Source: a virus (Duplodnaviria; Caudoviricetes). Taken from it: DNA of 59,638 nucleotides. The position numbers and the translations under genes are program-made. Position 1 is the first letter of the stretch. Each line of letters starts with the position of its first letter. This document shows positions 1 to 59,638 of this stretch, in pieces. Where the stretch lies: the IMG/VR virus record IMGVR_UViG_3300044645_001220, positions 1-59,638 of that record; one strand, written 5' to 3'. The notes under the pieces are model-generated. The model ran no database searches and was not told the DNA's origin. It saw only the letters and a program-made list of their open reading frames with translations.

Positions 1-127
1 TTTTTTTTGCTCCCAGGCATCGCTCCCAGGCATCGCTCCCAGGCCGGGACCGTCGGCGATGCCGGTCCTCGTGGCATCGCTCCCAGGCCGGGACCGTCGG
101 CGATGCCGGTCCTCGTGGCATCGCTCC
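1..127. repeat. Terminal direct repeat (identical to 59512..59638), probably a circular assembly overlap
   Basis: Exact 127-nt identity between the two ends; 127 is a common assembler k-mer. Confidence 0.9.
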
Positions 128-176
128 CAGGCCGGGACCGTCGGCGATGCCGGTCCTCGTGGCATCGCTCCCAGGC
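9..176. repeat. Tandem repeats: 2 x 13 bp (GCTCCCAGGCATC), then 3 x 44 bp
   Basis: Identical 44-bp units at 35-78, 79-122 and 123-166, plus a partial unit at 167-176. Confidence 0.95.
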
Positions 177-464
177 AATGCTAAGCTATCGCCCAAAATT
201 CAGCACCCCGCGCCCCTAGTTGGTGAACCCGCAGCAGGAGGAGGATGGGACAATCGGCACCCCCCGAACGTACTAGGGGGGGGAATTATCGCACCCCCCG
301 GATTGTACCCCCCCGCTCAGGTGCGGTAGGGGGGGTATGGTATTCCCCTACTATGTGCCGCCAGACAGTTCTTAGATTCGGCGCAGTGATGCGTGCGATC
401 TGTAATCCGCCCCTGCGCCGATTTTGACCTCTCGCACGCGCGTATTGCAAGTTGCTATTGCTAA

Positions 465-518
465 GCATAGCTGTCGGGCGATTTTCAGCGTGTCGCATCC
501 CAAGGTAGGTGACAGGGC
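465..518 (+). promoter_or_regulatory. Conserved ~50-bp early-operon element, copy 1
   Basis: Ungapped match to 575-628 and 3775-3828 (GCWTRGCTG-N8-TTTTCAGCG-N2-TCGCATCCC-N4-TRGGTGA); enclosed by a perfect 12-bp inverted repeat (453-464/541-552). Confidence 0.6.
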
Positions 519-574
519 AGGGGGCTTTGGGCAGTGGCTTTTAGCAATAGCAGTAGCAAGTAGCTTTTAGCCAT

Positions 575-628
575 GCTTAGCTGTCCCCGATTTTTCAGCG
601 GGTCGCATCCCGGAATGGGTGAGGGGTG
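575..628 (+). promoter_or_regulatory. Conserved ~50-bp early-operon element, copy 2
   Basis: Same motif, directly upstream of the first early gene. Confidence 0.6.
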
Positions 629-665
629 CGACCGACCAACCAAGTTACTCATGGAGAAGAGTATC

Positions 666-1322
666 ATGCCAGCATTGTATGAGAAGTATCGCCCTTCTAC
701 GCTCGATGACGTAGTTGGGCAAGCAGAAGCCGTTAATCGTATTCGTTTCTTGCAGCAGAGAAACGGGCTTGTCGGTAAGGCGTTCTGGATTAAGGGGCCT
801 TCCGCCAGCGGCAAGACGACTCTGGCTAAGATCATGGCCAGTAGTGTCACCGATGATCTTGCTATCGAAGAGCTAGATGCCCAGGACTTGACGCTCGATA
901 AGGTCAGAGAGTTCTCCGATAAGTGCCGCAAGAGGCCGCTATTCGGGGATTGCTGGGCATTTGTCGCCAATGAGGCACACAATCTCCGCAGTCAGGTGGT
1001 TTCTATGCTCCAGACTGTACTGGAGGAGGAACACGTTCAGCGTCATGGACTCTGGATCTTCACTACTACTGACAAAGGGCACAAGAAGCTGTTCGACGAC
1101 AAGTTCGACAGTTCGCCGTTCCTCAGTAGGGCAATCACTATCGAGCTTACGCTGACGCCAGACAAGCGTATTGAGTACGCCCAGCGACTCATGGCAATCG
1201 CACAAGCCGAAGGACTCGATAACGGCAAGGGAATCGTCGATTTCGCCCACCTAATGGCCAGATGCGAGCTTAACTTCCGCAAAGCGTTTGGCGAGTTGGA
1301 AGTCGGCTGTATGTTTGCCTAG
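666..1322 (+). CDS. Clamp-loader-like AAA+ ATPase (DnaX gamma/tau or RFC N-terminal-like)
   Basis: LYEKYRPSTLDDVVGQ (RFC box), Walker A GPSASGKT, variant Walker B FVANEAH, FTTT sensor-1 and FLSR arginine finger; start chosen after SD TCATGGAG at 649-656. Confidence 0.85.
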   Translation: MPALYEKYRPSTLDDVVGQAEAVNRIRFLQQRNGLVGKAFWIKGPSASGKTTLAKIMASSVTDDLAIEELDAQDLTLDKVREFSDKCRKRPLFGDCWAFVANEAHNLRSQVVSMLQTVLEEEHVQRHGLWIFTTTDKGHKKLFDDKFDSSPFLSRAITIELTLTPDKRIEYAQRLMAIAQAEGLDNGKGIVDFAHLMARCELNFRKAFGELEVGCMFA

Positions 1323-1352
1323 ATTGCCTATCCTTACTGACATTTTGTCAGT

Positions 1353-1394
1353 GCCGCAGAGTCGGTCACAGGGGGTTCGATTCCCTCAAGCGGC
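1353..1394 (+). ncRNA. Minimal tRNA-like element (acceptor-like stem plus T-arm)
   Basis: GCCGC...GCGGC stem enclosing GGGGG-TTCGATT-CCCTC; no D or anticodon arm; intergenic. Confidence 0.45.
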
Positions 1395-1466
1395 TTTCCA
1401 CACGGTTTGTAGCAATGCCACAGCGTTTGTGGCGTTGCCGGTTTCTAGTCTCATGGAGAGATAGCT

Positions 1467-1862
1467 ATGGTCCCGTTCTATGTCAAAGACCGATCCTACA
1501 GGGTGGAGCTTATCTGCGATCCACTGCCCGGACAGCCAGAGAGCCACACCAACAAGATTTTGGTGAAGGTTTACCACGAACCAGCGCTGAAGGAATATCG
1601 CATCATGGCGTTCCCGACGCAGGCAGAGCGTAAGGAGCTTGACGGCATTCCCTACGAAGTCACGAATGTCACCAAGTTTCGGGCTTGCATCGGCATTGTC
1701 GGCAAGACGCCTCGCTACAGCGACAAGCAGCTTCGGGACGTAGTTGCTCAGTCGATTCGCTCTGGTGCAGTTCTCGATTGCGTAGAGCAGGCTTGCAATC
1801 GTAACGGCCTAGTTCTATCTGCCGGGATGATCGAGAAGGTCGCCCCAAGCGTACTTGCCTAG
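1467..1862 (+). CDS. Hypothetical early protein
   Basis: 131-aa ORF with SD TCATGGAG at 1451-1458. Confidence 0.8.
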   Translation: MVPFYVKDRSYRVELICDPLPGQPESHTNKILVKVYHEPALKEYRIMAFPTQAERKELDGIPYEVTNVTKFRACIGIVGKTPRYSDKQLRDVVAQSIRSGAVLDCVEQACNRNGLVLSAGMIEKVAPSVLA

Positions 1863-1901
1863 TCCGTCGCCAGTTCCATTCACGTTCATGGAGAATGCAG
1901 C

Positions 1902-2195
1902 ATGACACCGAAGACCGAAGAAGATTTGATCTACGAAAGCGTTGCCGACTTGGCCTACAAAATGGCCAGAGAGCTTAAAGATCAGGCCATGAGCCTGTAC
2001 GACAGCATGACCGAAGACGAGAGGAAGAAGGTTCTTCCAGAGGAGGCACACGGCAAGAGGTACGCCGCCGCCAGGGTGCTTCTACTCGCAGCAAATATGA
2101 TCGACGAAAAGTCGCCTCTGCATCGCGAGTTCGCAGCAGAGTCGATCCTGAAGAATATCAAGTCGGCGAAACGCATTGTGCGTCAGCGACGATAA
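1902..2195 (+). CDS. Hypothetical early protein
   Basis: 97-aa ORF with SD TCATGGAG at 1886-1893. Confidence 0.8.
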   Translation: MTPKTEEDLIYESVADLAYKMARELKDQAMSLYDSMTEDERKKVLPEEAHGKRYAAARVLLLAANMIDEKSPLHREFAAESILKNIKSAKRIVRQRR

Positions 2196-2261
2196 ACGCA
2201 GAGTGGGGGCCGATGGCCCCTAATGCGGCCTTCCATCGTGGAAGCCAGTCACAAGCCTGGA
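2194..2261 (+). ncRNA. Twister self-cleaving ribozyme (P5-type permutation), copy 1; predicted cut at 2221/2222
   Basis: AA-CGCA-GAGTG, P1 GGGGCC/GGCCCC, TAA, P2 TGCG/CGCA, GC (T2), P3 CTTCCA/TGGAAG, P4 CCAG-TCACAAGC-CTGG, T1 CAC/GTG; matches the twister consensus. Confidence 0.88.
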
Positions 2262-2279
2262 TTCATGGAGAGTATGGCA

Positions 2280-2903
2280 ATGAGTACAAGAGGAACCTAT
2301 GGCTTTCACTCAGAAGTTCGTCGGCAAAGGCATTTCGTTTACATCCACCACGACAACTACCCAGAAGGAGCGGCAACCTATTTCTACACGGCACTCATGA
2401 GCGACAATCAACATGGAAATTTTGCCACGGTATTTGTTCGTTCCGTCAGTCGCTCGGAACTGACGGAAAGCCATGAAATCCACGCAGATACCGAGTATCG
2501 CTACGACGTAACGGGACATGGCCCGGATGCGATTCTTCTAGCATACGAACGCCAGCACAGCCAGAAGCCTGAGTGGTTTCCGTTCTTCAACGGAAGACTT
2601 TACGAGTTTATTCACCAATACCCTGACAACATCAACGGATTCGAGCCGTTCAAGAAGGTGGCCCTGCGGTACGACCAGACCATTGTGCTTAACGACACAC
2701 TAGCAGGTGTTCGATTGCACGATGCTCTTCGCAAAATGAATTTATGGAAAGTTACATTTCGCAATTCCGCCAACTGGAATCGTGTAACTGAAGAAGCGAA
2801 AGCTCTTATTGCGGCCTTTCCAGAATTGCCAGAGCGAATGGATCAGAATTTGATTCCAATGCTCGCTTACCTGAACGAGCATGAAGAACAAAACGCAGAG
2901 TGA
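2280..2903 (+). CDS. Hypothetical phage protein (MSTR...YIHHDNYPEG type) flanked by twister ribozymes
   Basis: SD TCATGGAG at 2263-2270; the last codons (QNAE*) overlap twister copy 2. Confidence 0.8.
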   Translation: MSTRGTYGFHSEVRRQRHFVYIHHDNYPEGAATYFYTALMSDNQHGNFATVFVRSVSRSELTESHEIHADTEYRYDVTGHGPDAILLAYERQHSQKPEWFPFFNGRLYEFIHQYPDNINGFEPFKKVALRYDQTIVLNDTLAGVRLHDALRKMNLWKVTFRNSANWNRVTEEAKALIAAFPELPERMDQNLIPMLAYLNEHEEQNAE

Positions 2904-2956
2904 GGGCTTCGGCCCGTAATGCGGCTCCCCACAGTGGGGAACGGTCACAAGCCCGG
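2892..2956 (+). ncRNA. Twister self-cleaving ribozyme (P5-type permutation), copy 2; predicted cut at 2917/2918
   Basis: AA-CGCA-GAGTG, P1 GGGC-TTCG-GCCC, TAA-TGCG-GC, P3 TCCCCA/TGGGGA, P4 CGG-TCACAAGC-CCG; core identical to copy 1 while the stems differ with pairing kept. Confidence 0.88.
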
Positions 2957-2966
2957 AGGAATCACC

Positions 2967-3353
2967 ATGAAGACGATTGAGATTTGCGGGTGCAGCGAAT
3001 GGTTTCGCTTGCACACTGAAGCAGTGCCGAACGGACTCGATAGCGACACAGAGAACGACGCTATCGCTTCCCTGGTGACTGACATCAGCCGAGCGCTCGA
3101 CCATTTGAGGTACGCCAACTACGTCGCAACTCACGGATACCACCAGTGGAACGGCTTGGACGGAGTTGCAGGAGGATACTCTCGCAGGCCGAGAATTGCA
3201 GGCGGCGTAGTTCGTGCAGTCGCTTGCAAACTGACGCCAGAGGAGGTCGATGAAGTAGAGAAAACCGTTTCTCAGTGCATGAGTGACTTCCGTGAAGGAC
3301 TCGATGCCGCCCTGGAAAGTTGCGGGTATTTCGCCGAGCCGGAAGACGAATAA
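2967..3353 (+). CDS. Hypothetical early protein
   Basis: ATG after GGAGGA at 2955-2960; the longer track ORF runs through the ribozyme. Confidence 0.75.
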   Translation: MKTIEICGCSEWFRLHTEAVPNGLDSDTENDAIASLVTDISRALDHLRYANYVATHGYHQWNGLDGVAGGYSRRPRIAGGVVRAVACKLTPEEVDEVEKTVSQCMSDFREGLDAALESCGYFAEPEDE

Positions 3354-3383
3354 AAAAGCCGCAGCAATTACGCCACGGCTTTC
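3352..3383 (-). terminator. Probable intrinsic terminator, possibly bidirectional
   Basis: AAAGCCG/CGGCTTT stem with an A-run on + (U-tail on -), between convergent genes. Confidence 0.55.
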
Positions 3384-3404
3384 ATACGATCGGCGATGGG
3401 TTCG

Positions 3405-3515
3405 CTACTTGCACTTACAGGTGCCAGACCCACACTTGCGGCAACCGCCGCCCTTGCCGCCCTTGCCGCCACCTTTACCGCCCTTTGTCCCCTTCATAGG
3501 AGTGCCCTTTGCCAT
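3405..3515 (-). CDS. 36-aa Gly/Lys/Cys-rich peptide (MAKGTPMKGTKGGKGGGKGGKGGGCRKCGSGTCKCK)
   Basis: Translated by hand (below the ORF-track cutoff); own sigma70 promoter upstream and terminator downstream. Confidence 0.7.
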   Translation of the reverse strand: MAKGTPMKGTKGGKGGGKGGKGGGCRKCGSGTCKCK

Positions 3516-3550
3516 GAAGACTTACTGAAAACCGTAACGCCACAGGTCGA

Positions 3551-3579
3551 AGAGTATCACTGTTTTGTTGTCGTGTCAA
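3551..3579 (-). promoter_or_regulatory. Sigma70-type promoter for the antisense peptide gene
   Basis: TTGACA-17 bp-TACTCT with a TG extension on the minus strand. Confidence 0.7.
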
Positions 3580-3596
3580 ATTCATGGAGGTGCATC

Positions 3597-3770
3597 ATGC
3601 TACGAATCACGGTTCCCGTTGGGGCAAGTTTCATAGTGGGGAAAGCCACTGTTACCCTACTCAAGCGCCACGGAAACCATATCTCGGTGACGGTTGAAGC
3701 GCCGAAGGAAATCCCCATTCGGCGTATCCGCCAAGACGGTACTCCAGTAGAGAGAAAACCAGCCAAGTAG
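3597..3770 (+). CDS. csrA: CsrA/RsmA-family carbon storage regulator homologue (57 aa)
   Basis: MLRITVPVGASFIVGKATVTLLKRHGNHISVTVEAPKEIPIRR aligns with CsrA (ML....G....IG...V.V....G..V......APKE..V.R); SD TCATGGAGG. Confidence 0.8.
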   Translation: MLRITVPVGASFIVGKATVTLLKRHGNHISVTVEAPKEIPIRRIRQDGTPVERKPAK

Positions 3771-3774
3771 CAAT

Positions 3775-3828
3775 GCTTGGCTGGTCCCGATTTTTCAGCG
3801 GCTCGCATCCCGAAGTGGGTGACGGGCA
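3775..3828 (+). promoter_or_regulatory. Conserved ~50-bp early-operon element, copy 3
   Basis: Same motif as 465-518 and 575-628, upstream of the ATPase/vWA gene cluster. Confidence 0.6.
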
Positions 3829-3856
3829 AGTTTCAAATTTTTCATGGAGCAGAATT

Positions 3857-4681
3857 ATGTCGAACAATCTCGGAGAAGTTGTCGGTTGGTCAGTCGATAC
3901 CAAGGGCACTGTCGTTCACGATGTACGCCAAGCACTTGCCACCGCTGGTTTCGAGCCAGACGCCGCTAAGGATCTCAACGCCAAGCACGCCTGGGGCAGA
4001 GCGATCAAGTCGCTAAAGGAAAGCCGATCGATCGACAAGCTGGTTGACGAGGATGGCAGTATCAGCTTCCAGTTCACACGCAAGGCTGTTCTTGGTGGTC
4101 GATTCGAGTTCGATTACGAGTTCACAGTTCACCTTGACGCAACGACTGGCAACGTCACTTGTCCAGAGCGGCCAGATTTTGCGATCGAGGCACAGAACCT
4201 AGTCAATGCGGCCTACAACGACCGCAACGCCAGTGACATCAGCCGCATCGTCATGCGACTGTTCAAGAAACGTGCCGACCTGTTCCCAGTCATCCCCGAC
4301 AAGGGTGTGGTTTACTTCGTGCCGCATCAGCACAAGGAGTTCACCGACCGCATCGAAACTTTCCTGTCTGCTATGGGTGGCAAGTTGCATCGCTTTATTG
4401 TCCCCAAGGGTGACGAGAAGTCGAATCGCGAGGTCCGAGATTCCGTGATGGCTGGCATGGAGGAAATGATTCAGGAGCTTTCCGCTTCCGTCGATGGCTG
4501 GGACGATACGACCCGCACCGACACAATCAACCGCGCTCTTGACCGCTATCAGAAGATCCGCCTCAAGATGGACGCCTACGCTGAGTTCCTGTCCGACAAG
4601 TCAGGAGAGATCCGCACCCGCCTTGACGACGCCAGGAAGCAGTTCCTAGCCAAGGTCGAAGAGTTCTCTGCCGCCAAGTAG
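3857..4681 (+). CDS. Conserved protein upstream of the MoxR ATPase (DUF6744-like)
   Basis: LGEVVGWS and GVVYFVP motifs, helical C-terminus, position before the AAA-vWA pair. Confidence 0.6.
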   Translation: MSNNLGEVVGWSVDTKGTVVHDVRQALATAGFEPDAAKDLNAKHAWGRAIKSLKESRSIDKLVDEDGSISFQFTRKAVLGGRFEFDYEFTVHLDATTGNVTCPERPDFAIEAQNLVNAAYNDRNASDISRIVMRLFKKRADLFPVIPDKGVVYFVPHQHKEFTDRIETFLSAMGGKLHRFIVPKGDEKSNREVRDSVMAGMEEMIQELSASVDGWDDTTRTDTINRALDRYQKIRLKMDAYAEFLSDKSGEIRTRLDDARKQFLAKVEEFSAAK

Positions 4682-4735
4682 TTCACGTTCGATTTGTTTC
4701 AAGTGTTTTTCATCAAGGTTCATGGAGAATCCACT

Positions 4736-5830
4736 ATGTCAGTTCAAGCCAAGTTTGCCGCCTTCCGTACCGCCCTTCATGCTGGCATGGTCCAGCGAGA
4801 AGAGGAGTCCGATATGGTTCTCACGGCCCTTCTTTGCCGGGAACACGCCTTGGTTGTGTCGCCGCCAGGAGAAGGCAAGTCGATGTTGCTCGACGCCATC
4901 ATGGCATGGGCGAAGGCCCCCAAGTTTGATATTCTTCTCAACAAGTTCTCGACTCCAGAAGAAGTCCTCGGCCCCATCAGCGTGACTTCGATGAAGTCTG
5001 ACCAGTATCGTCGCATCACCGACGGTATGCTTCCGCAGGCATCGGTGGCGTTCCTCGACGAAATCTTCAAGGCATCGTCGGCGATCCTCAATACGACTCT
5101 CAAGATCCTCAACGAGCGTAAGTTCCGCAACGGTATCGAGACTCTTGACTGCCCCCTGCTATTGTGTGTCGCCGCCAGCAACGAGTGGCCTTCATCCAGC
5201 GACGGCCTGGGCGCCCTGTTCGATCGGTTCCTGTTCCGCAAGACGGTAGGTACGATCAACGACGAGCGTGGCATCAAGCGATTGCTCTGGGACGACTCGA
5301 TCGGCGTCAAGATTGCCGACACGATCAGCCTGCCGGAAATCAATCTGGCTTGCGATCAAGCAGCGGCAATGCCCTGGACGCCAGAGGCCCAAGACGCCAT
5401 GTACGATTGCGTGGTCGGCGTTCGCCGCGAAGGTGTTCACGTTGGCTCCCGACGTATTCGCAAGTCAGTGCGTGCAGCACAGGCTTTCGCTTTTCTTGAC
5501 GGTTCCGACGCTGTTCAGCCCGAACACTTGGAGATTCTTTCGCACGTTCTCTGGGAAGACCCCAGCGAGCAACCGAAGATCGTCGCCAAGACAATCATGC
5601 AGATTGCCAACCCAGGCAACGCTGTTGTGATGCAGCTTTTAACCGAATGCGAGCAGGCTGTTGACGGCCTCGACATCAAGGATGCAGCCGCCACCACTGT
5701 CTGCATCAAGAAGCTCTCCGAGATTCAGACGCAACTCAAGGGGACCAAGGGGACCAAGGCAACCGCCGCTCTCCAGTACGTCAGCGACAAGATCAAGAAG
5801 ATCAAGCTCGACTTGGTTGCAGCGTTCTAG
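4736..5830 (+). CDS. MoxR/RavA-like AAA+ ATPase
   Basis: SPPGEGKS, STPEEVLGP, FLDEIFKASSAILNTTLKILNER, ASNE, ALFDRF. Confidence 0.92.
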   Translation: MSVQAKFAAFRTALHAGMVQREEESDMVLTALLCREHALVVSPPGEGKSMLLDAIMAWAKAPKFDILLNKFSTPEEVLGPISVTSMKSDQYRRITDGMLPQASVAFLDEIFKASSAILNTTLKILNERKFRNGIETLDCPLLLCVAASNEWPSSSDGLGALFDRFLFRKTVGTINDERGIKRLLWDDSIGVKIADTISLPEINLACDQAAAMPWTPEAQDAMYDCVVGVRREGVHVGSRRIRKSVRAAQAFAFLDGSDAVQPEHLEILSHVLWEDPSEQPKIVAKTIMQIANPGNAVVMQLLTECEQAVDGLDIKDAAATTVCIKKLSEIQTQLKGTKGTKATAALQYVSDKIKKIKLDLVAAF

Positions 5831-5875
5831 GTTTCTCTTGTTCTGTTCACGTTCACCAAACTCAGGAGAATCACT

Positions 5876-7246
5876 ATGGATCTTCGCGACTTACTTGCCG
5901 ACAAGTCAGGCATCGACGACGGTACTGTCGGGACCGCACCAGTGCAGGCGACTCCAACCAAGTTCAGCCTGCACCATGACGAATGGTCGCAGCGACGGGG
6001 TTCCGAATTGTTCCAGGGCAGCGAGGAATTGCAGGGTATCTTCTCCGCTGTTGACGGCGACATCGCAGAGACGGCGACGACCGACTTCCGTGGTGGTGCT
6101 TTCGAGTATCGCCCCAAGCAGTCGGACAACTGCACCAATCCGCGACTCGCCAAGTACATGCAAGCCCTCATGGATACCGAGGAGTTCCGCCAGCTTCGCA
6201 CTGTCACAGTCGGCGACGAGAATGCCAGCGAGATTGCGGCCCTTAAGTTTGCGTCAGGGTTCGCAAAAGTCATGGAGGAAGTCACCGAGGAGCAGGCCGC
6301 TACCGATAAGGGCGAGGTCGCTATCGACGTTCAGGCTGTTCGTGCCGCGATGGACGCCAGCCAAGCCATCGATCAGTACGAGGATGTTCGCGACTCCCTT
6401 CCCGGTATGGGTGGCGATCCCGCTGGGGCCAAGCCAATTACGCAGGAAGCAGTAGCCGGTTTGTTCGGCAAGATCCGCAAGAGTTCGATGCTCATGGGAA
6501 TCATGCGACTGGCAGGACGCTACCGCCGCATCGCCCAGTCTGCCCAGCGCCGCAAGGTTCCAGTCGGCATCGACGATGTTGTCGGCGTGCATCAGTCAGG
6601 CGACATCGGAAAGCTACTGCCGTCAGAGCTTGGCCGATTGTCCGACCCGATGTTCGAGGACGATACCATGCGACGTATCGTAGAGAACGCCGCCCAGTGT
6701 CGCGAGCATTGCGGTAACGAGTCAGTAGGCAAGGGTCCGATTGTCGTGATCGTTGACGAGACTGGCAGCATGACCAACAACGATAACATCTACCACGCAA
6801 AAGCGTTCGCCCTCAGTCTGTACTGGGTGGCGAGCAGCCAGAAGCGATGGTGCTGTCTGGTTGGCTACGCCGGGGAGGGTATGAATGTTCTTGTCATCCC
6901 TCCTGGTGCCAACAAGACCGACCAAGTTCTTGAGTGGCTGGAGCATTTCGAGAACGGTGCAACGAATCTTTGCATCCCAGTCGATAAGCTACCCGCCGCA
7001 TGGAGTTCGTTCGGCTGTCCGAAGGGGCAGACCGACATCGTTCAGATCACCGACGCCATCTGCCGCATCCCTGCGGAGACTGTCGCCAGATTCAACACCT
7101 GGAAAAAGCAGGAGCAGGTTCGGTTCCTCACGATCGTAATCGCCGAGGCAGCAGGAGAAGCCGCCAAGATTAGCGACGATTGCTGGGTGTATAATTCAAT
7201 GGCCGCAGGCAGTGACGCCATCAACGACATTCTCAGAAAGGTGTAA
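5876..7246 (+). CDS. vWA-domain protein (ViaA-like MoxR partner)
   Basis: LLPSEL, GKGPIVVIVDETGSM (MIDAS), GATN, ITDA. Confidence 0.88.
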   Translation: MDLRDLLADKSGIDDGTVGTAPVQATPTKFSLHHDEWSQRRGSELFQGSEELQGIFSAVDGDIAETATTDFRGGAFEYRPKQSDNCTNPRLAKYMQALMDTEEFRQLRTVTVGDENASEIAALKFASGFAKVMEEVTEEQAATDKGEVAIDVQAVRAAMDASQAIDQYEDVRDSLPGMGGDPAGAKPITQEAVAGLFGKIRKSSMLMGIMRLAGRYRRIAQSAQRRKVPVGIDDVVGVHQSGDIGKLLPSELGRLSDPMFEDDTMRRIVENAAQCREHCGNESVGKGPIVVIVDETGSMTNNDNIYHAKAFALSLYWVASSQKRWCCLVGYAGEGMNVLVIPPGANKTDQVLEWLEHFENGATNLCIPVDKLPAAWSSFGCPKGQTDIVQITDAICRIPAETVARFNTWKKQEQVRFLTIVIAEAAGEAAKISDDCWVYNSMAAGSDAINDILRKV

Positions 7247-7248
7247 GC

Positions 7249-7605
7249 ATGGCAAAGTTCCAGCGATACAACTTCGATACCATGACGCCGCAGGAAAGTC
7301 GCAACGTAATCGGCAAGCGATTGCTAGCCTGCGGTGTCAAGTACGTCAACGTCAGGCATGACCCTTCCCTGCCCGACCGCACTACCGATGTTCTGGTTCA
7401 GGGCATCATGGCCGATATGAACCTCAGCACCGACGAGTTCAAGCCGTACTGGGAAAACTTCTGCGCAGCGTCCAACGCATTCCACGATGGCACTATCCAG
7501 AAGGCGATTGCCCAAGCAGTTACCATGACCGATGCAATTCAGTACGAGATTTCACCGTTCAGCAATGATAAGGTTGCGATCAAGCCAATCGGCTACATCA
7601 AATAG
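7249..7605 (+). CDS. Hypothetical protein
   Basis: 118-aa ORF, operonic spacing. Confidence 0.75.
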   Translation: MAKFQRYNFDTMTPQESRNVIGKRLLACGVKYVNVRHDPSLPDRTTDVLVQGIMADMNLSTDEFKPYWENFCAASNAFHDGTIQKAIAQAVTMTDAIQYEISPFSNDKVAIKPIGYIK

Positions 7606-7614
7606 GAGGCAGCT

Positions 7615-7887
7615 ATGGGTTCAAGGATTTTTGTGAAGCATCGCCGAACGCATGAGATCGTCGAACTGATGAAGGGCCGTGGCCATCGCCATCCCAAGTG
7701 GGTTTACAAGCAGATGGGCCTGAAGTCGGAAGAGGATATTCAGTGCGTGATTCGGTTCGTTGACGAGCCAGTCGCAAAGAAAAGCAGGAAGGACATGGAT
7801 GTTCTTGAAGCCCTGCTCGAAGAGTCTGGCGGTGAGTATGACAGCATTGGTGTTCTTGTCATCAGAGAGGAGGTGCCAAGTGCCTGA
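7615..7887 (+). CDS. Hypothetical protein
   Basis: SD AGGAGG; 90 aa. Confidence 0.75.
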   Translation: MGSRIFVKHRRTHEIVELMKGRGHRHPKWVYKQMGLKSEEDIQCVIRFVDEPVAKKSRKDMDVLEALLEESGGEYDSIGVLVIREEVPSA

Positions 7888-7969
7888 CCCCCAGCCGTGG
7901 TATATCAAACTCGGTTCGTGTCTTGTTGTTCTGTTCTGGATTGCTTTCTATCTCTGGTTCAGCCAGTAA
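7880..7969 (+). CDS. 29-aa single-TM peptide
   Basis: GTG after GGAGG; hydrophobic stretch LVVLFWIAFYLWF. Confidence 0.55.
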   Translation: MPDPQPWYIKLGSCLVVLFWIAFYLWFSQ

Positions 7970-7978
7970 GGGGGAACG

Positions 7979-8257
7979 ATGGTTGTCGATGTTGCGTTTA
8001 GAGTTTGGAGAAGCGTCGAAGAAACTCCGAAGGGCGAGCAGTCCAGCGAGACGTTTGCAGACGTAGAGTCTGCGGCAGCGACCGCCTGCAAGTGGAATCG
8101 CAAGTCGAAGGCAACGCTTCATATAGTCATGCTTCGAGCAGACGGATCGATCGTGACTGACAGGGTTGCAATCACCACGACCAGAGCCACGAAGACGGCC
8201 TTGTCGATGGTGAAGAAGGCGGCTCTCGCTGGGGAGATTGACTTCGACGGCGAGTGA
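7979..8257 (+). CDS. Hypothetical protein
   Basis: 92-aa ORF with a purine-rich SD. Confidence 0.7.
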   Translation: MVVDVAFRVWRSVEETPKGEQSSETFADVESAAATACKWNRKSKATLHIVMLRADGSIVTDRVAITTTRATKTALSMVKKAALAGEIDFDGE

Positions 8258-8291
8258 GTTTTAGTTTCGTTCACGTTCACGGAGAAAGGCG

Positions 8292-8459
8292 ATGGACAAG
8301 TCAATCAAAGTCGGAACGCTGGTTAAGACGGAATGCAAGTGGGGAAACCCATCAAGGGTTGATAGAGTCGCAAGCATCACCGTCAACTCTCTCGGAACTA
8401 CGATCTATATCCTCAGAAACGGAGGATGTTTTTCTGCCAGGGAGCTTTCGATCGTCTGA
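8292..8459 (+). CDS. 55-aa hypothetical protein (MDKSIKVGTLVKTEC...)
   Basis: Translated by hand; SD TCACGGAG at 8277-8284; not in the ORF track. Confidence 0.65.
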   Translation: MDKSIKVGTLVKTECKWGNPSRVDRVASITVNSLGTTIYILRNGGCFSARELSIV

Positions 8460-8496
8460 CTTTTTCAATGGCTCATTCATTTAGAGAAAGGGAATC

Positions 8497-8883
8497 ATGG
8501 GCAAGAAAGCATTGGTATTTGACGACAATCGAGGGCTTGTTTACGGGGTCATGGCCAACTGGGCAGAGGCAAGTTGCCCTGTGCTACAACTTGCAGGCGA
8601 ACCGACTTCGCCCGACGAATGGGAGTGGGTGTCAACTCCGTTTCAGGTAGCCGACTTCCGCCACGATCCGCATGATGCACTTCGATGGGCGATGGACGAC
8701 TCTTCATCCCCTTGGGACAGCACCGGAGACGATGAAGCAGACAGCGACTCGCTTGAGAAAGCGGTAGCGGCAGCGAAGTGGTATAACGAAGACGGAACTC
8801 CAGACGAAGATGATTCCATCAGCAAGGAGGCAGACTGGGTTGCGGAAGGAATCATCACGAAGATCCTGAGCGAAGACAAGTAA
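8497..8883 (+). CDS. Acidic hypothetical protein
   Basis: 128-aa D/E-rich ORF with SD. Confidence 0.75.
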   Translation: MGKKALVFDDNRGLVYGVMANWAEASCPVLQLAGEPTSPDEWEWVSTPFQVADFRHDPHDALRWAMDDSSSPWDSTGDDEADSDSLEKAVAAAKWYNEDGTPDEDDSISKEADWVAEGIITKILSEDK

Positions 8884-8936
8884 CCACAAGGGCCGGGGCC
8901 TCCAGCGTTTTTTTGAAACCACTTTTGGAGAATAGG

Positions 8937-9146
8937 ATGAAGTTTGAAAACAAGCTAGAACTAGAAATTCAAAAACTAAAGATTGGGCAGTCGTATTCGT
9001 GGAGCCTAGACTGGACAACGAAGGTTACGCGGGCCGCAACGCATCTGTACTGCGTGAGTGTAAAAGCACCACAATTTGAAAAAGCAGCAGAGTTTACGGG
9101 TTCGCTGAGTTTCTCCTGCGATAAACTGCGAGCGTGGATTCGATGA
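8937..9146 (+). CDS. Hypothetical protein between 20-bp direct repeats
   Basis: SD GGAG; AT-richer than its neighbours. Confidence 0.6.
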   Translation: MKFENKLELEIQKLKIGQSYSWSLDWTTKVTRAATHLYCVSVKAPQFEKAAEFTGSLSFSCDKLRAWIR

Positions 9147-9174
9147 TAAGCCACGAAGGAAACAAAAATAGCCG

Positions 9175-9207
9175 GGGCCTCCAGTGTTTTGCTGGAGGCC
9201 CTTTTTT
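9175..9207 (+). terminator. Intrinsic terminator ending the early operon
   Basis: GGGCCTCCAG/CTGGAGGCCC stem followed by TTTTTT. Confidence 0.85.
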
Positions 9208-9210
9208 ATT

Positions 9211-10170
9211 TCACGGCGAGATCATCTGAAACTCTTTCGGCTTGAACTGCTTTCTCGCTCGACGCTGACCGATCGCGAGTGCCTCATGGAGGTTGTGAGA
9301 GGCAAGCATCGCCGCCGCAATATCGGGACGGCTTGACGCCAGACATTCGCTGACCTTCTGGTAGTTCGCATACACTTCTGGATTGCGTAGCTGGTTGGGG
9401 TCAGTCACCTTCAGGATTCGGTAGCACAGTTCAGGTGCAATCATCCTCCTGAAGCCGTTGCCGTGGGCAAACCCCTCGGTTTCTCTATTGCGATTGGCAG
9501 GCATCAGGTTGATATGCTTGCTGCATTCTGCATCAATCTCGTGGCACGTTCGGTATTCGAGCAGCCACCATTCAGCGAGCTTCTTTGCAGCCTGCCTTGC
9601 TGGTTCGTCCCAGTACAAAACGCGACCGCTCTTTTTTCCCTCAACCCTTATGCCGAATGGGCAGTTCTTCCCACGAAACGCACTTGCATATACGCCCATG
9701 CGGATTCTTTGCTGGAGTCCCTGCCTCGTGCGCGAAGAGATCATCGACGCCTCAAGCTGCGCGAGAGCAGCCATCATCGACAGCATGAAGTCGCCCATCG
9801 GAGTACCGACTGACACGCTACAGCCACGCATATCGACGATATGCACGCTGATTTGATTGCTCTTGAACCACGACATCAGGCGAACAAAGTCTTCCATCGA
9901 TCGCCACATTCGGTCCAGCTTGTCGATAATCAGGTGATCCCCAGGCTTCATGACTGCAATGAGAGCCTTCCCGGCAGGGCGCTCAGCGAATCGAAACTTC
10001 GACGCCGAGCATTGCTTGCCGTCCTGGTGAATCCCTCCCCACGCTACGCCACTGGCCTTCAACATCATGCCGTAGTAGCCCTCGATCCGGTGGGCTTGGG
10101 CAGAAATCGATTCCCCCTCCTGGAATCCCTCCAAGTGGCTAATCCTTGCGTACCCGTATGCCGTCGCCAT
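9211..10170 (-). CDS. Serine recombinase (resolvase-type catalytic domain with extended C-terminus)
   Basis: YGYARIS (catalytic Ser), ERPA, GDHLIIDKLDRMWRS, AQLEASMISSRT, PFG. Confidence 0.92.
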   Translation of the reverse strand: MATAYGYARISHLEGFQEGESISAQAHRIEGYYGMMLKASGVAWGGIHQDGKQCSASKFRFAERPAGKALIAVMKPGDHLIIDKLDRMWRSMEDFVRLMSWFKSNQISVHIVDMRGCSVSVGTPMGDFMLSMMAALAQLEASMISSRTRQGLQQRIRMGVYASAFRGKNCPFGIRVEGKKSGRVLYWDEPARQAAKKLAEWWLLEYRTCHEIDAECSKHINLMPANRNRETEGFAHGNGFRRMIAPELCYRILKVTDPNQLRNPEVYANYQKVSECLASSRPDIAAAMLASHNLHEALAIGQRRARKQFKPKEFQMISP

Positions 10171-10414
10171 TCCTCACCCCTTTCTCTTTGGTGATGTTTT
10201 CCACAAAACTCTCGTACATCTTCAGGCTTGACGCCATTCCGCCAGGAAGGGTCACTGTTTCCAGTTTCACATAAACGTCTGCACCCCTGATCTTCGTCCC
10301 CTTTATCGCCCATCGTCGGACGGAAGCATAAGAGTGGGGGTACGGAAGTATCTTTGCTAGATCGCGGAGAAGCAACAATCGATCCTGCTCAGTGCCGCCA
10401 GTCGATTCCGCCAT
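10139..10414 (-). CDS. DUF1580-like winged-HTH protein (possible excisionase or regulator)
   Basis: ASVRRWAIKG...VKLETVTLPGG..SS....F pattern; family characteristic of Planctomycetes. Confidence 0.75.
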   Translation of the reverse strand: MAESTGGTEQDRLLLLRDLAKILPYPHSYASVRRWAIKGTKIRGADVYVKLETVTLPGGMASSLKMYESFVENITKEKGVRNGDGIRVRKD

Positions 10415-10455
10415 TGCGACTCTCCGTCTTGCGAAAACTTGAATTTGCTTCCATA

Positions 10456-10484
10456 TTCTTAAATCAAATGGCGTTTAGTGTCAA
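10456..10484 (-). promoter_or_regulatory. Possible sigma70 promoter for the HTH-recombinase operon
   Basis: TTGACA-17 bp-TAAGAA on the minus strand; weak -10. Confidence 0.4.
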
Positions 10485-10556
10485 GCGATTTCTTTCTCTG
10501 GCAAATTGTGGCTAGGCTTTCGGCATTGGTGACAACAAAACCACTGGAGAAACCGA

Positions 10557-11678
10557 ATGTCTGGCGAAGAAGAACTCGACGGCGAAGTAGGATCTGCATT
10601 CACTGACGCAATGTCAGTCGCTCAAGGCGAACAGCCGCAGGCCACCCCCGATGTTCCGCCAGAGGCACCTCCAGAGGCACCGCAGCAGCCCGACTATTCC
10701 GATCTTGTAGGGCTGGCTCAGCAAGTCGGCATGAGGGTTGACGGAAATGTTGACCCAGCACAGATGGCAAGGGAAGCACTGGCGGAACTGCAACGTCAGC
10801 GACCATACGTCGATTACGCAAGGCAGATTGCCCCGCACGCGCAGGAGTTCAATGCCTACCTTCAGCAGAGAACCCAGGCCCAGCAGCCACAACCCACCCA
10901 GCAACCACAGCAGAATGAATTTGACCCAGACGAATATCTCAACCAGCAATGGGGCGCTCCAGGGTGGTCCCCAAACTGGGACGAAGCGGTTCGCCGTGGG
11001 GTAGTGCAGCAAGACCCAGACAGCGGCCTCTATGTTGCGGCCCAGGGATACGAGGTAGCGACGGCCAGCCTTGTCGCGGAAATGAATCAAGCACGAGCAG
11101 CCCAGCTTGCCCAGTGGCAGCAGCTTGGAAAGCAGAATCCATACCAGTCGTTCTACAAGGCGGTTCAAGAACCACTTCGCCGACAGTGGCAGAACGATGT
11201 CAAGTCAGAGATCGAGAAGTATTTCTCGCAACAAAGAACCCAGACTGCGATCGAGCAGTTTGAATCCCAGAACGCAGGGTGGCTTTACAGTCAGGATGCG
11301 TTCGGGAATGTCTCCGCTTCCCAGGATGGGCAGCGTTTATTTGATGAACTGCGAACCCTTCAGGACGCCGGGGTGCAAGATCCTCAGACGAGGCTCAACA
11401 TTGCACTCCGATCGACAGGACTCGCAGCCAAGGTATCGGGGTTGCAATCGCCGCAACAGGTTCCCGCACAAGCGGCACCTCAAGCGGCACCAGTGGCAAA
11501 CCAAGCCGCTACTCCGGGGCAGCAACCCTTTTTGAGATCCGCCCTGGAACGAGCCAGCCATGCTCCCCAGATGCAGCCGGGTGTTGGTCAAACCCCGCCT
11601 GCTGAATCTGTGCTGATAACTGAAGGCGAACTGAAAAACATGTTCGCGAATGAGTTCCGCAGAACAAGAGGTGCATGA
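10557..11678 (+). CDS. Putative capsid scaffolding protein
   Basis: Q/P/A-rich, acidic, immediately upstream of and overlapping the capsid gene. Confidence 0.65.
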   Translation: MSGEEELDGEVGSAFTDAMSVAQGEQPQATPDVPPEAPPEAPQQPDYSDLVGLAQQVGMRVDGNVDPAQMAREALAELQRQRPYVDYARQIAPHAQEFNAYLQQRTQAQQPQPTQQPQQNEFDPDEYLNQQWGAPGWSPNWDEAVRRGVVQQDPDSGLYVAAQGYEVATASLVAEMNQARAAQLAQWQQLGKQNPYQSFYKAVQEPLRRQWQNDVKSEIEKYFSQQRTQTAIEQFESQNAGWLYSQDAFGNVSASQDGQRLFDELRTLQDAGVQDPQTRLNIALRSTGLAAKVSGLQSPQQVPAQAAPQAAPVANQAATPGQQPFLRSALERASHAPQMQPGVGQTPPAESVLITEGELKNMFANEFRRTRGA

Positions 11679-12787
11679 TGGCTGACGAATGGATTGGAAT
11701 AGTAAAGACGACTCAACCCAAGTACATGAAAGGTGCTTCGGATTTGACGATCCGCAAGCGACTTTTCCTGGCGATGCTTCAGAAGCGGGGCCGCATCGAG
11801 ACGAATCATTCCGGTACGGAACTGCGATGGCAGGCTGAATACTCTCAGCCTCCCGTACAGACGCACGCTGACGGTGGTGTCGTGGATTTCTCCAACCACG
11901 ATGCCTTTAAGCAGCTTGCGATTGACTGGCGTGGGTACTACGCGACCGACACCATGTCCCGCAAGCAGCAGGAAATGAACAAGGGCAATGAAGCCCTCAT
12001 CAACCTGTTCCAAACCAAGTCCAACCGACTTCAGAAAGCGATCACCGATACGTTCTCGGCAGAGCTTTACAAGGACGGGGAAGCAGCAGGCCGCGAGTCT
12101 GCAATCCACGGCCTCGAAACTTTTCTGGCCGGTTCGGCCACCGCCGCCGATAAGGTCGCCCGACCGAACGATAGCTACGGCTTGACCGCACTATCCACGG
12201 TTCCCGGTGCGGCTGGTGGTGCGTGGTCGAGCGGCCTTGCGACTCCCAACAATGCCGCCATCGGGACCGACTGGCCCGATGGGCAGGGAGATTCCGAGTA
12301 CGATTACCTCTCACCAAAGTTGGTGAACTGGAGTAGCACCAACTGGGGAACAAGCTCGACCGCATGGGAAGACAACGCTTGGCGCGTGGTTTCTCAGACG
12401 ATCACTTGGCTCACCACGACTGGCGGCGAAGACGGAATGCCTCAGTATTTCGGCTTGGCCTCCAATCTTTTCCAGGGGTACAAGAACGCTCAGGAAGTCA
12501 AGACTCGCATCATGGTTCCTCACAAGGAAGCAAGCGATCTCGGCTTCGGTCAGGCTCTCAACCAGGACGGGTGTGCCCTGTACTCGGACTTCGATTGTCC
12601 AGTCAATACTGGCTACGCCCTGAACCTTGCACACATTACTGTGTGCAGCCTGTTCCCCCAACTCCTGTGGATGGAAGGTCCAGACAAAGATCCTCGATCT
12701 CTGTGGTCCTACCTCTGGGGCGTCGGGTTCTACGGCAACGTCAAGTACCAGCCAAAGCACGTTGCCAAGCTGTTCAACTACGCCTGA
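11675..12787 (+). CDS. Major capsid protein
   Basis: 370 aa; N.G.EALINL...K and LY.DG....I.GL patterns typical of HK97-fold coat proteins; position after scaffold. Confidence 0.8.
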   Translation: MMADEWIGIVKTTQPKYMKGASDLTIRKRLFLAMLQKRGRIETNHSGTELRWQAEYSQPPVQTHADGGVVDFSNHDAFKQLAIDWRGYYATDTMSRKQQEMNKGNEALINLFQTKSNRLQKAITDTFSAELYKDGEAAGRESAIHGLETFLAGSATAADKVARPNDSYGLTALSTVPGAAGGAWSSGLATPNNAAIGTDWPDGQGDSEYDYLSPKLVNWSSTNWGTSSTAWEDNAWRVVSQTITWLTTTGGEDGMPQYFGLASNLFQGYKNAQEVKTRIMVPHKEASDLGFGQALNQDGCALYSDFDCPVNTGYALNLAHITVCSLFPQLLWMEGPDKDPRSLWSYLWGVGFYGNVKYQPKHVAKLFNYA

Positions 12788-15301: not shown

Positions 15302-15968
15302 AGAACGGTGGTGCGCTGCCTGTTGCAAACTGAAGCCCATCGGGGAGTTCGACGACTCCCTGGATGGGCCTTGGGTTCAGTGTGTCGCGTGCAAGGAGAC
15401 TGCCGCCAAGATGGAAGACGAAGCCAACGCCATCCGTCAAGAGAAGAAAGAGGCCGTCAATCTTTTGATGGATCTCGCCAACGCGAAAACCGCTCCCTCT
15501 CTGAATGAAACTCTTGGTGCAATCTGGGATAAGTTTGGCGGGGCCGAAGGGTTCGCCGACAAAATGAATCGGGTGATCGAGGACCAGCTTTCGAGGGACC
15601 GCATCCCGTACCAGACGGCGATGATTATGACGAACCTTCTGCGACTTCAGCTTCACGCAGAGCAGCACAAGGAAGCAGTTCGCGTCAACGATATGACGCA
15701 AGAGCAGATCGAAGCAGAGATCCAGCGAGAGAAACTGAAGTTCATGATCGAAGCCATGTCCGACCCAGACAAGGCAAAGATCATCCAGGGTATGCTCAAA
15801 GACAAGGGGCTGGAAGTATCTATCTCCAACACCTCTGTACCATCGGGAACCGTGATCGTTCACGAAGAAGAGGATATTCCCATCGAGGCCAGGGCATTGC
15901 TCTTGAACAAGATTCGCAGGGAGATTGAAGATGGCCAACCGCCTAAACGAACTGACGCTGGCTCTTGA
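15258..15968 (+). CDS. Zn-finger protein, terminase small subunit candidate
   Basis: CxxC...CxxC then helical region; directly upstream of and overlapping TerL. Confidence 0.5.
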   Translation: MPKVKLGSFVSSSHKERWCAACCKLKPIGEFDDSLDGPWVQCVACKETAAKMEDEANAIRQEKKEAVNLLMDLANAKTAPSLNETLGAIWDKFGGAEGFADKMNRVIEDQLSRDRIPYQTAMIMTNLLRLQLHAEQHKEAVRVNDMTQEQIEAEIQREKLKFMIEAMSDPDKAKIIQGMLKDKGLEVSISNTSVPSGTVIVHEEEDIPIEARALLLNKIRREIEDGQPPKRTDAGS

Positions 15969-42719: not shown

Positions 42720-42756
42720 ATTGTCATTCGCTGGCAATTCATCACGGAGAAGGGCA

Positions 42757-45238: not shown

Positions 45239-45998
45239 CCCCGAGTTTGAGTCATTCCTGGTCGATTGCCACGAAGAGGACGATGCTGCCCTAGAGGCAA
45301 GTCTTGTCGAATGTGGAGGGGCAAGAGATCCGATTGTGGTGTGGAAGGGCCACGGCGTTATTGTCGATGGCCACCGCCGATACAAAATCTGCCAGAGACT
45401 AGGATTCCCGTATCGCGTCGAGGAGATACACTTCGACGATCGAACGGCAATCCTGAAGTGGATGGCGAATTGGCAGTTCATGCGGCGGAACATGACTCCC
45501 GCACAACGGGCAGTCCTGGTCCACCGAATCGTCAATCAGCGAACGATCGAGTCGCCGTCGGCCCCGGTGACGGCAGTGGTTCGAGAAGTCGCCGAGCAGA
45601 CACAGCGAAGCGAACGACAGGTGTATCGCGATGCTGCGGCTGGAAGGGTGCTGGATACGGCCCCGGAGGAGATTCGTGAAGTTGCACTAGAAATGCCGCT
45701 CTCCGAAGTCTCTCAGATTGGGGCGATTCCAGAATCCGCCAAGGACGAGATTGTGTCGATCCACGACAAGGGCGAGCGGAAGAAGCGAATCAAGTCGGAG
45801 ATCGCCAAGACGAAATCCAAGGGCAAGCCCACCGGCCCATGCTCTCGGACATTGCAGGATGCGACAGAACTTCTTGCGCTACTGCAAAAGAAGTGCAGCG
45901 ATATTTCGCGGCAAGTGGATGACGCTCATGGATTCAAGACTCTTCGATTCCACTTCAAGGGAATCGACGACATGCTTGACACATGGAGGAGGAAGTAG
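45216..45998 (+). CDS. ParB/Srx N-terminal domain protein
   Basis: G.RDPIVVW..IVDGHRRY.IC, RRNMT. Confidence 0.8.
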   Translation: MSMLLQVDPEFESFLVDCHEEDDAALEASLVECGGARDPIVVWKGHGVIVDGHRRYKICQRLGFPYRVEEIHFDDRTAILKWMANWQFMRRNMTPAQRAVLVHRIVNQRTIESPSAPVTAVVREVAEQTQRSERQVYRDAAAGRVLDTAPEEIREVALEMPLSEVSQIGAIPESAKDEIVSIHDKGERKKRIKSEIAKTKSKGKPTGPCSRTLQDATELLALLQKKCSDISRQVDDAHGFKTLRFHFKGIDDMLDTWRRK

Positions 45999-59488: not shown

Positions 59489-59519
59489 AGGGGGGGACTT
59501 GTTCCCCCCCTTTTTTTTT
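59489..59519 (+). terminator. Intrinsic terminator
   Basis: AGGGGGGGA/TCCCCCCCT stem plus a 9-T run. Confidence 0.9.
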
Positions 59520-59638
59520 GCTCCCAGGCATCGCTCCCAGGCATCGCTCCCAGGCCGGGACCGTCGGCGATGCCGGTCCTCGTGGCATCGCTCCCAGGCC
59601 GGGACCGTCGGCGATGCCGGTCCTCGTGGCATCGCTCC

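Follow-up and report, generated by a model that had tools for sequence, protein, structure and literature searches.

The viral record IMGVR_UViG_3300044645_001220 (Caudoviricetes; IMG/VR), whose entire 59,638 bp form the window of this analysis, belongs to a tailed phage that carries, in its left arm, a gene for a small CsrA-family protein and, at the ribosome sites of this gene and its neighbors, a recurrent motif, TCA(N)GGAG. These boxes are extended Shine-Dalgarno (SD) elements, selected as such, which mark a left-arm module, and the motif is real, selected and of the CsrA type. We propose that a CsrA-family dimer would bind the CA-N-GGA core overlapping the SD sequence, block 30S binding and, with rising protein levels, lower the translation of csrA and of the other module genes, the outcome being negative feedback and a shut-off loop. 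Such self-run translational control is plausible but unproven: we give the complete model, in which the phage protein participates and the module is shut down, a probability of about 0.4. That the boxes are sites for some CsrA-family protein is slightly more probable, if still short of an even chance, and the predicted control of csrA by its own product, well supported by comparison between genomes, deserves more confidence than the model as a whole.

The exact octamer TCATGGAG occurs 11 times in the window, on the + strand only, against a mean of 2.70 (sd 1.73, maximum 7) in shuffled sequences, 0 of 100 of which reach 11. Seven copies end 6-9 nt 5' of the ATGs at 666, 1467, 1902, 2280, 3597, 3857 and 4736, the early starts before which a first-pass annotation of this DNA had placed them, and the remaining four (6270, 9284, 17435 and 38522) precede no called start. 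Of the 77 genes called for this analysis, 13 lie on the + strand and start no further than 8300; seven of them have TCATGGAG at most 22 nt before the start, as does none of the remaining 64 (Fisher p = 7e-7). For CANGGAG, the corresponding figures are 8/13 and 4/64 (p = 2e-5), so that the suggested enrichment in presumed early over remaining genes is borne out. The boxes, together with the variants reported alongside them, which are all in place, are the following:

649..656, + strand: TCATGGAG box 5' of the clamp-loader-like AAA gene (ATG 666)
1451..1458, + strand: TCATGGAG box 5' of gene 1467; five flanking base pairs place AUGGA in a 5-nt loop
1886..1893, + strand: TCATGGAG box 5' of gene 1902; one strain variant has a 587-nt gene inserted directly behind it
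2263..2270, + strand: TCATGGAG box 5' of gene 2280, 3 nt 3' of twister ribozyme 1; TCAGGGAGA in the strain with a swapped gene
3582..3589, + strand: TCATGGAG(G) box at the ribosome site of csrA itself
3842..3849, + strand: TCATGGAG box 5' of the DUF6744 gene (ATG 3857)
4720..4727, + strand: TCATGGAG box 5' of the MoxR-type AAA gene (ATG 4736)
5862..5868, + strand: TCAGGAG variant 5' of the VWA gene (ATG 5876)
8277..8284, + strand: TCACGGAG variant 5' of the 55-aa gene 8292; strain L171 lacks the gene, and its box joins the ribosome site of the following gene
42742..42749, + strand: TCACGGAG variant 5' of the AAA_24 ATPase gene (ATG 42757)
45982..45988, + strand: CATGGAG(GAGG) 5' of the helicase gene (ATG 46000), the least convincing copy, as it runs into a full AGGAGG

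An alignment of ten leaders on GGAG gives TCA-(T, C or nothing)-GGAG, and across 11 instances, one of them from a strain variant, TCA and GGAG are invariant, with T, C, G or no base between them (as RNA, the box is UUCAUGGAGAA / GUUCAUGGAGAAU in this phage and UUCACCGGAGAA in the sister phage considered below). GGAG is a common SD core throughout the phage and often has a T on its 5' side (CTGGAG, TTGGAG, ATGGAG); CTGGAG, which the first-pass annotation ascribed to putative scaffold and decoration genes, precedes the starts at 10557, 12846, 41604 and 43907. Judged from the canonical anti-SD sequence, the upstream TCAT cannot lengthen the pairing with the 16S tail. What lies upstream is otherwise unrelated for six of the seven TCATGGAG copies (a twister ribozyme, a D2 repeat element, a tRNA-like stretch), and recent duplication therefore gives no explanation for the identical octamer. 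The ATG within TCATGGAG was also considered as a real start and rejected, as it shares the reading frame of the gene at just two of the seven sites.

The conservation of the boxes was measured among strain variants, i.e. metagenome contigs of 96-98% identity over most of 90-10634, which share ancestry and are thus not independent. Outside one swapped joint, the seven boxes display 0 substitutions in 120 aligned nt (p = 0.005), the other intergenic positions 64 in 1467 (4.4%) and the coding positions 445 in 13822.

The leaders resemble CsrA sites in sequence, and some of them may do so in shape. UCA-N-GGAG lies 6-9 nt 5' of the start in 10 leaders, providing a GGA core with an upstream CA that overlaps the SD sequence. 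According to the passages of PMC7652899 drawn on here, the consensus of CsrA selected in vitro (SELEX) is RUACARGGAUGU, with ACA and GGA invariant and ligands bearing short stems, and E. coli CsrA represses its own translation via an SD-overlapping site. The free middle base of the box corresponds to the degenerate position of this motif and was for this reason counted in favor of a CsrA site. In five of ten leaders, three to five contiguous pairs flank A(N)GGA to form a short hairpin with a 5-nt loop (e.g. GUCUC-AUGGA-GAGAU and CGUUC-AUGGA-GAAUG), the paired positions varying among copies; at least five flanking pairs occur in three of eight leaders (p = 0.007), two of the three being repeat copies.

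The candidate regulator is encoded within the module:

3597..3770, + strand: csrA-like gene encoding P0001 (57 aa), with Pfam, PHROG and Protein Data Bank (PDB) profile matches and a fold model

This ORF (open reading frame) encodes a genuine but divergent phage CsrA-family protein. A 124-aa call from an upstream ATG was rejected: the true start is at 3597, M1-L2 being invariant across the family alignment. P0001 matches the PHROG 'CsrA-like regulator' families at E = 7e-5 and solved CsrA/RsmA PDB chains at E ~5e-4; once aligned with its relatives, all 11 members match the Pfam CsrA family PF02599 at E <= 0.001 and the resulting profile hits CsrA structures at 3e-21. An AlphaFold model based on this 11-row alignment (mean predicted local confidence, pLDDT, of 85.4) has no predicted C-terminal helix, and its top 15 Foldseek matches in the PDB are all CsrA, RsmA or RsmE (TM-score ~0.70, with 0.68-0.71 for most; root-mean-square deviation ~1 A over 44 columns; probability 1.00), the best E-value being just 5.6e-3 for so short a chain. 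P0001 keeps L2, I4 (conservative for L4) and R43, which aligns to R44 as the first-pass annotation had stated; L4 and R44 are critical RNA-contact residues of CsrA (PMC7652899, same passages), and the presence of R43 with L2/I4 speaks for RNA binding having been kept. A search of 1.84 billion representative proteins gave just four matches at E <= 0.001, namely the own locus read from the upstream ATG and three CsrA-like proteins (41-47% identity), and no close relative was found by a word-indexed protein search or by scanning viral contigs with P0001. Across three strain variants, the protein shows a single amino-acid change.

Searches with the head protein and MoxR gathered 17 loci in 10 related viral records. 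A tblastn search with P0001 failed to detect the csrA genes of the relatives in the first of these loci, and they were found by the Pfam model only; this model has a match in 8 of the 10 records, seven of them over the cut-off, and in all four records at least 90% complete. The two records without a match are fragments (64% and 74% complete), and in one of them, G001, the contig stops short of the place where csrA would be expected; none of the 10 is thus a complete relative lacking csrA. csrA is hence a core gene of this phage clade. The proteins of the relatives range from canonical (MLVLSRK...) to divergent, and in the nearest relative, G002, the gene occupies the same place, directly 5' of the DUF6744-MoxR-VWA genes. 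A strict CANGGA covers the own ribosome site in six of the eight called phage csrA genes, compared with a pooled rate of 76 in 552 ribosome sites over 11 phages (p = 1e-4); G002 has CAGGAGG and G004 CTTGGAGG at this site, and the start in G010 is not fixable. Among csrA genes of the host lineage, CANGGA is found at the own site in two of eight. The recurrence of CA(N)GGA on csrA's own site in 6/8 phages makes autoregulation the best-supported part of the model.

The module transcript probably carries its own processing signals. Two predicted ribozymes are located in its spacers:

2197..2260, + strand: Twister-P5 ribozyme 1, in the spacer 5' of gene 2280 (Rfam RF02684, 48.7 bits for a gathering score of 37.6)
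2894..2956, + strand: Twister-P5 ribozyme 2, whose last stem overlaps the GGAGG of gene 2967 (Rfam RF02684, 46.6 bits)

Both match the full length of the RF02684 model, differ from each other by paired stem changes and accumulate 0 substitutions in 381 positions among the strain variants (p = 4e-8), while the adjoining spacers vary. Two more twisters flank the csrA region of relative G003 (L028, 13912-13993 and 19774-19841, - strand), and the scan found none in eight other related records (G008 lay outside it). As judged from their sequences, the predicted twisters probably cut the module transcript immediately upstream of the 2280 and 2967 ribosome sites; by analogy, the cut would fall after the U of CU|AAUGC. 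A role in processing polycistronic messages has been proposed for type-P5 twisters lying between phage genes, in the part of PMC6765202 consulted.

The phage probably infects planctomycetes and lives in lakes. The listed sequencing runs that contain it include none of RNA, and the DNA runs are mostly lake-water metagenomes; relatives of its head protein (L061 and L062; genomes G011 and G012) lie on contigs in two metagenome-assembled genomes (MAGs) titled Planctomycetaceae, the assignment to a host being indirect as it relies on MAG binning. As a host background, 310 genes were called in 385 kb of one such MAG: TCATGGAG lies 5' of 0/310 and CATGGAG 5' of 4/310, and CANGGA is present in 16 of 197 GGA-bearing sites. 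The objection that the octamer could be the usual SD context of the host, raised together with the original proposal, is thereby disfavored. Even with GGAG common in the phage and T often preceding it, the shuffles, the left-arm bias and these host counts make chance or host context a most improbable source of TCATGGAG. At 64%, the G+C content of this MAG is far from the 54% of the phage, and the MAG may therefore not be the true host.

That G+C gap is one of several points that weigh against the model, others of which concern the protein. P0001 scores 25.6 bits (E = 1.2e-5) with PF02599, under the 27-bit cut-off, and 23.3 and 16.4 bits with the NCBIfam equivalogs, whose cut-offs are 73 and 70; positions 6/7 are V/P, so that the two basic RNA-contact residues R6/R7 are gone, and the E46 position is R45, both as the first-pass annotation had read them. 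The distribution of the box is equally unfavorable. TCATGGAG is found in this phage only among the related records and is not common to the other csrA carriers. In the closest relatives, G002 and G001, TTCACCGGAGA stands at seven and four ribosome sites, in many cases as part of longer repeats like GTTTCGTTTACGTTCACCGGAGA, and the sister box TCACCGGAG has its A three bases 5' of GGA, hence is not A(N)GGA; no dominant extended box was found in the seven more distant records (six with csrA and the csrA-less fragment G008). CANGGA occupies 14 of 53 ribosome sites in this phage and from 1/35 to 13/69 in the relatives. Viral and metagenome contigs yielded 51 distinct MoxR-ortholog leaders, generally G-poor 5' of GGAG, and CANGGA appears in nine of these; two of the nine belong to near-identical strains, which brings the rate to background. 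A box regulon is accordingly not ancestral in the csrA-carrying clade, since the box is not common to its members. The leaders themselves fall short of the best-known sites: the minimum-energy folds of only 2 of 11 leaders leave the whole GGA mostly unpaired (P > 0.8 for each base), GGA presentation in a hairpin loop is not consistent across leaders, and no second A(N)GGA or AGGA site was found in -80..-19 of the 10 box leaders, well-studied CsrA targets such as glgC having two or more sites (PMC7652899, passages as above). Among strain variants, the TCAT half alone is not significantly conserved (p = 0.07). Finally, the module is presumably early, judged by gene order and position, and its timing and shut-off are deductions. 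Of the translational regulon put forward in the first-pass annotation, the CsrA-family protein, the SD-overlapping box, its concentration in one module and the motif at csrA's own site in 6/8 phages have held up, while the box has proved unshared, single in each leader and inconsistently looped. That the phage protein, and not a host paralog, is the binder, that binding represses and that the module is early is what we infer.

An alternative of only slightly lower standing, tentative in its turn, is that the boxes form a lineage-specific ribosome-site or leader cassette, a strong, unstructured, G-poor leader with GGAG that the early genes have in common, that is homogenized by recombination and that has no dedicated repressor, the phage CsrA acting on host mRNAs of defense, motility or metabolism. 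The analogous but different box of the sister phages in its longer repeats, the G-poor MoxR leaders without a conserved CANGGA, the single site per leader and the inconsistent loops all favor it, as does a 34-nt repeat (family D4) running through the start codon that is common to three copies in the window; the suppression of host defense proposed by Campa et al. 2021 (PMC8450108, as far as consulted) points the same way and away from the model. The variants L123, L122 and L171 are also mosaic at 1895-1914, 2271-2892 and 8276-8483, with joints lying exactly at boxes or twisters: the 587-nt gene inserted directly after box 1886-1893 uses that box, the gene at 2280-2903 is replaced between box and twister 2 by a gene with TCAGGGAGA, and deletion of gene 8292 in L171 joins TCACGGAGA to the following ribosome site. 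Joints at boxes are expected of shared ribosome-site linkers whatever the reader, and this mosaicism agrees equally with selection on a motif whose middle base is free and with shared linkers for cassette exchange; contigs from four sequencing runs carry the same variants and mosaic joints as the metagenome loci and give no independent test of box conservation. A cassette is harder to reconcile with the unrelated upstream contexts of 6 of the 7 TCATGGAG copies and with the motif on csrA's own site in 6/8 clade members, and SD pairing gives no account of a fixed TCA followed by a variable middle base.

The boxes could also be read by CsrA paralogs of the host, with P0001, devoid of R6/R7 and of the C-terminal helix, competing, forming mixed dimers or soaking up host antagonists and thereby altering the host's handling of phage messages, a version of the dominant-negative partner imagined in the first-pass annotation. 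The two Planctomycetaceae MAGs with related phage contigs have 8 and 6 CsrA matches, whose products could be the binders, a further point against a phage-run circuit; CsrA is widespread in Planctomycetota (PMC13443453, in the part seen), P0001 has diverged much further than those of relatives G009, G007 and G005, and its model appears to keep the dimer-forming beta core. We consider a host reader unlikely, given R43 and L2/I4 in P0001 and the indirect host assignment. Doubtful too, though less so than a host reader, is the broadest form of the proposed regulation, in which the clade of lake phages, probably of planctomycetes, would run its own CsrA circuit, with csrA and the module repressed via SD boxes, a box that drifted with its fast-evolving protein (UCAUGGAG here, UCACCGGAG in the sister) and a module cut by twisters.

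The remainder of the phage genome gives the setting of the module. Its landmarks are the following:

666-1322: clamp-loader-like AAA gene
3857-7246: DUF6744-MoxR-VWA trio
9211-10170, - strand: serine recombinase (Resolvase domain), between two terminator hairpins
11678-12787: major head protein
15931-17697: large terminase
18135-20288: portal
46000-47574: helicase

The first 127 bases recur at the window end (1-176 and 59490-59638 being overlapping ends), which indicates that the assembly is circular or that the genome has terminal repeats. The window ends display a strong hairpin with a T9 terminator followed by 44-nt tandem repeats (~3.6 copies); an origin or regulatory sequences may lie here, ahead of the left-arm module. 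The serine recombinase may mean that the phage is temperate or that it carries an invertase. No DNA-level match to deposited phages was obtained by blastn with 600-8400, and a scan of 1-10600 for sigma-70-type promoters returned 3 sites for 5.4 expected, none close to the boxes. A search of the window for CsrA-sponge RNA revealed no non-coding A(N)GGA cluster, the densest A(N)GGA windows all lying within coding regions.

Several further elements were observed near these genes. A 60-nt repeat, D2, is present in three + strand copies, at 457-519 and 567-628, both ahead of the first gene, and at 3767-3830 directly 3' of csrA, and its 5' half is a terminator-like hairpin with a T run (3758-3785). 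D2 was rejected as a new ribozyme, with copies in this phage only, nothing in Rfam at E <= 5 and a strain substitution rate equal to background; it may be a terminator/promoter unit. In the spacer 1323-1466, a stretch resembling the T-arm and acceptor of a tRNA (GGTTCGATTCC near 1372) is called a tRNA by neither ARAGORN nor Rfam; it could be a remnant or a processing signal. Just 5' of csrA, on the antisense strand, a 36-aa Gly/Lys-rich, Cys-rich ORF without a Pfam match (MAKGTPMKGTKGG...CRKCGSGTCKCK; 3405-3515, - strand) is probably a real gene, as seven of its eight strain substitutions fall at third codon positions; the same stretch attracts many unrelated metagenome contigs. In G002 (L026-L027, 27692-33645, - strand), repeats of 35-40 nt ending in TTCACCGGAGA stand 5' of seven consecutive early genes.

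Phage-borne csrA is documented, and the published idea of its role is host control. If true, the circuit proposed here would be the first concrete, testable function for phage CsrA proteins, a compact timing device for gene shut-off and an addition of post-transcriptional control to the scant knowledge of Planctomycetota phages; the system is small enough to test, short RNA oligonucleotides and a 57-residue protein being sufficient.

The closest known parallel is repression by CsrA, RsmA and RsmE (E. coli glgC and csrA; P. fluorescens hcnA), with which the present system shares a small CsrA-fold protein with an R44 equivalent, a CA-N-GGA motif over the SD sequence, in some copies within short hairpin loops, and a regulator whose own ribosome site bears the motif. 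The hcnA site, which we take to be UUCACGGAUGAA, is close to the GUUCACGGAGAA of the window at 8292. The present system differs in being phage-encoded, in having one site per leader and a binding that is predicted, in the missing R6/R7, E46 and C-terminal helix, and in having no sponge RNA found in the window. Like the type-P5 twisters known between phage genes (RF02684), the two copies here exceed the gathering score in spacers between small genes; they differ in standing directly 5' of a ribosome site each, in the same module as the boxes, and are known from sequence. T4 RegA, a small phage protein, represses translation by binding to ribosome sites on its own message and on several other early ones; the logic would be the same here, with an unrelated fold and recognition sequence and a prediction made from sequence. 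As for phage homologs of CsrA and RsmA, about 1.2% of phage genomes (30/2517) carry a csrA allele (Sobrero and Valverde 2020; PMC7366521), and Campa et al. 2021 (PMC8450108) reported many phage RsmA/CsrA genes in GenBank and IMG/VR. Phage-internal CsrA targets are not mentioned in the passages of these two papers drawn on here, where the proposed role is host control, and no paper describing phage-internal CsrA boxes was found in the literature outside subscription journals and supplements. The likeness to these homologs is a csrA allele in a phage genome; the difference is a core gene of a likely planctomycete-phage clade, with matching boxes on the phage's own genes. Phage csrA alleles are thus what was known, and CsrA-type boxes on the phage's own ribosome sites appear to be what is new.

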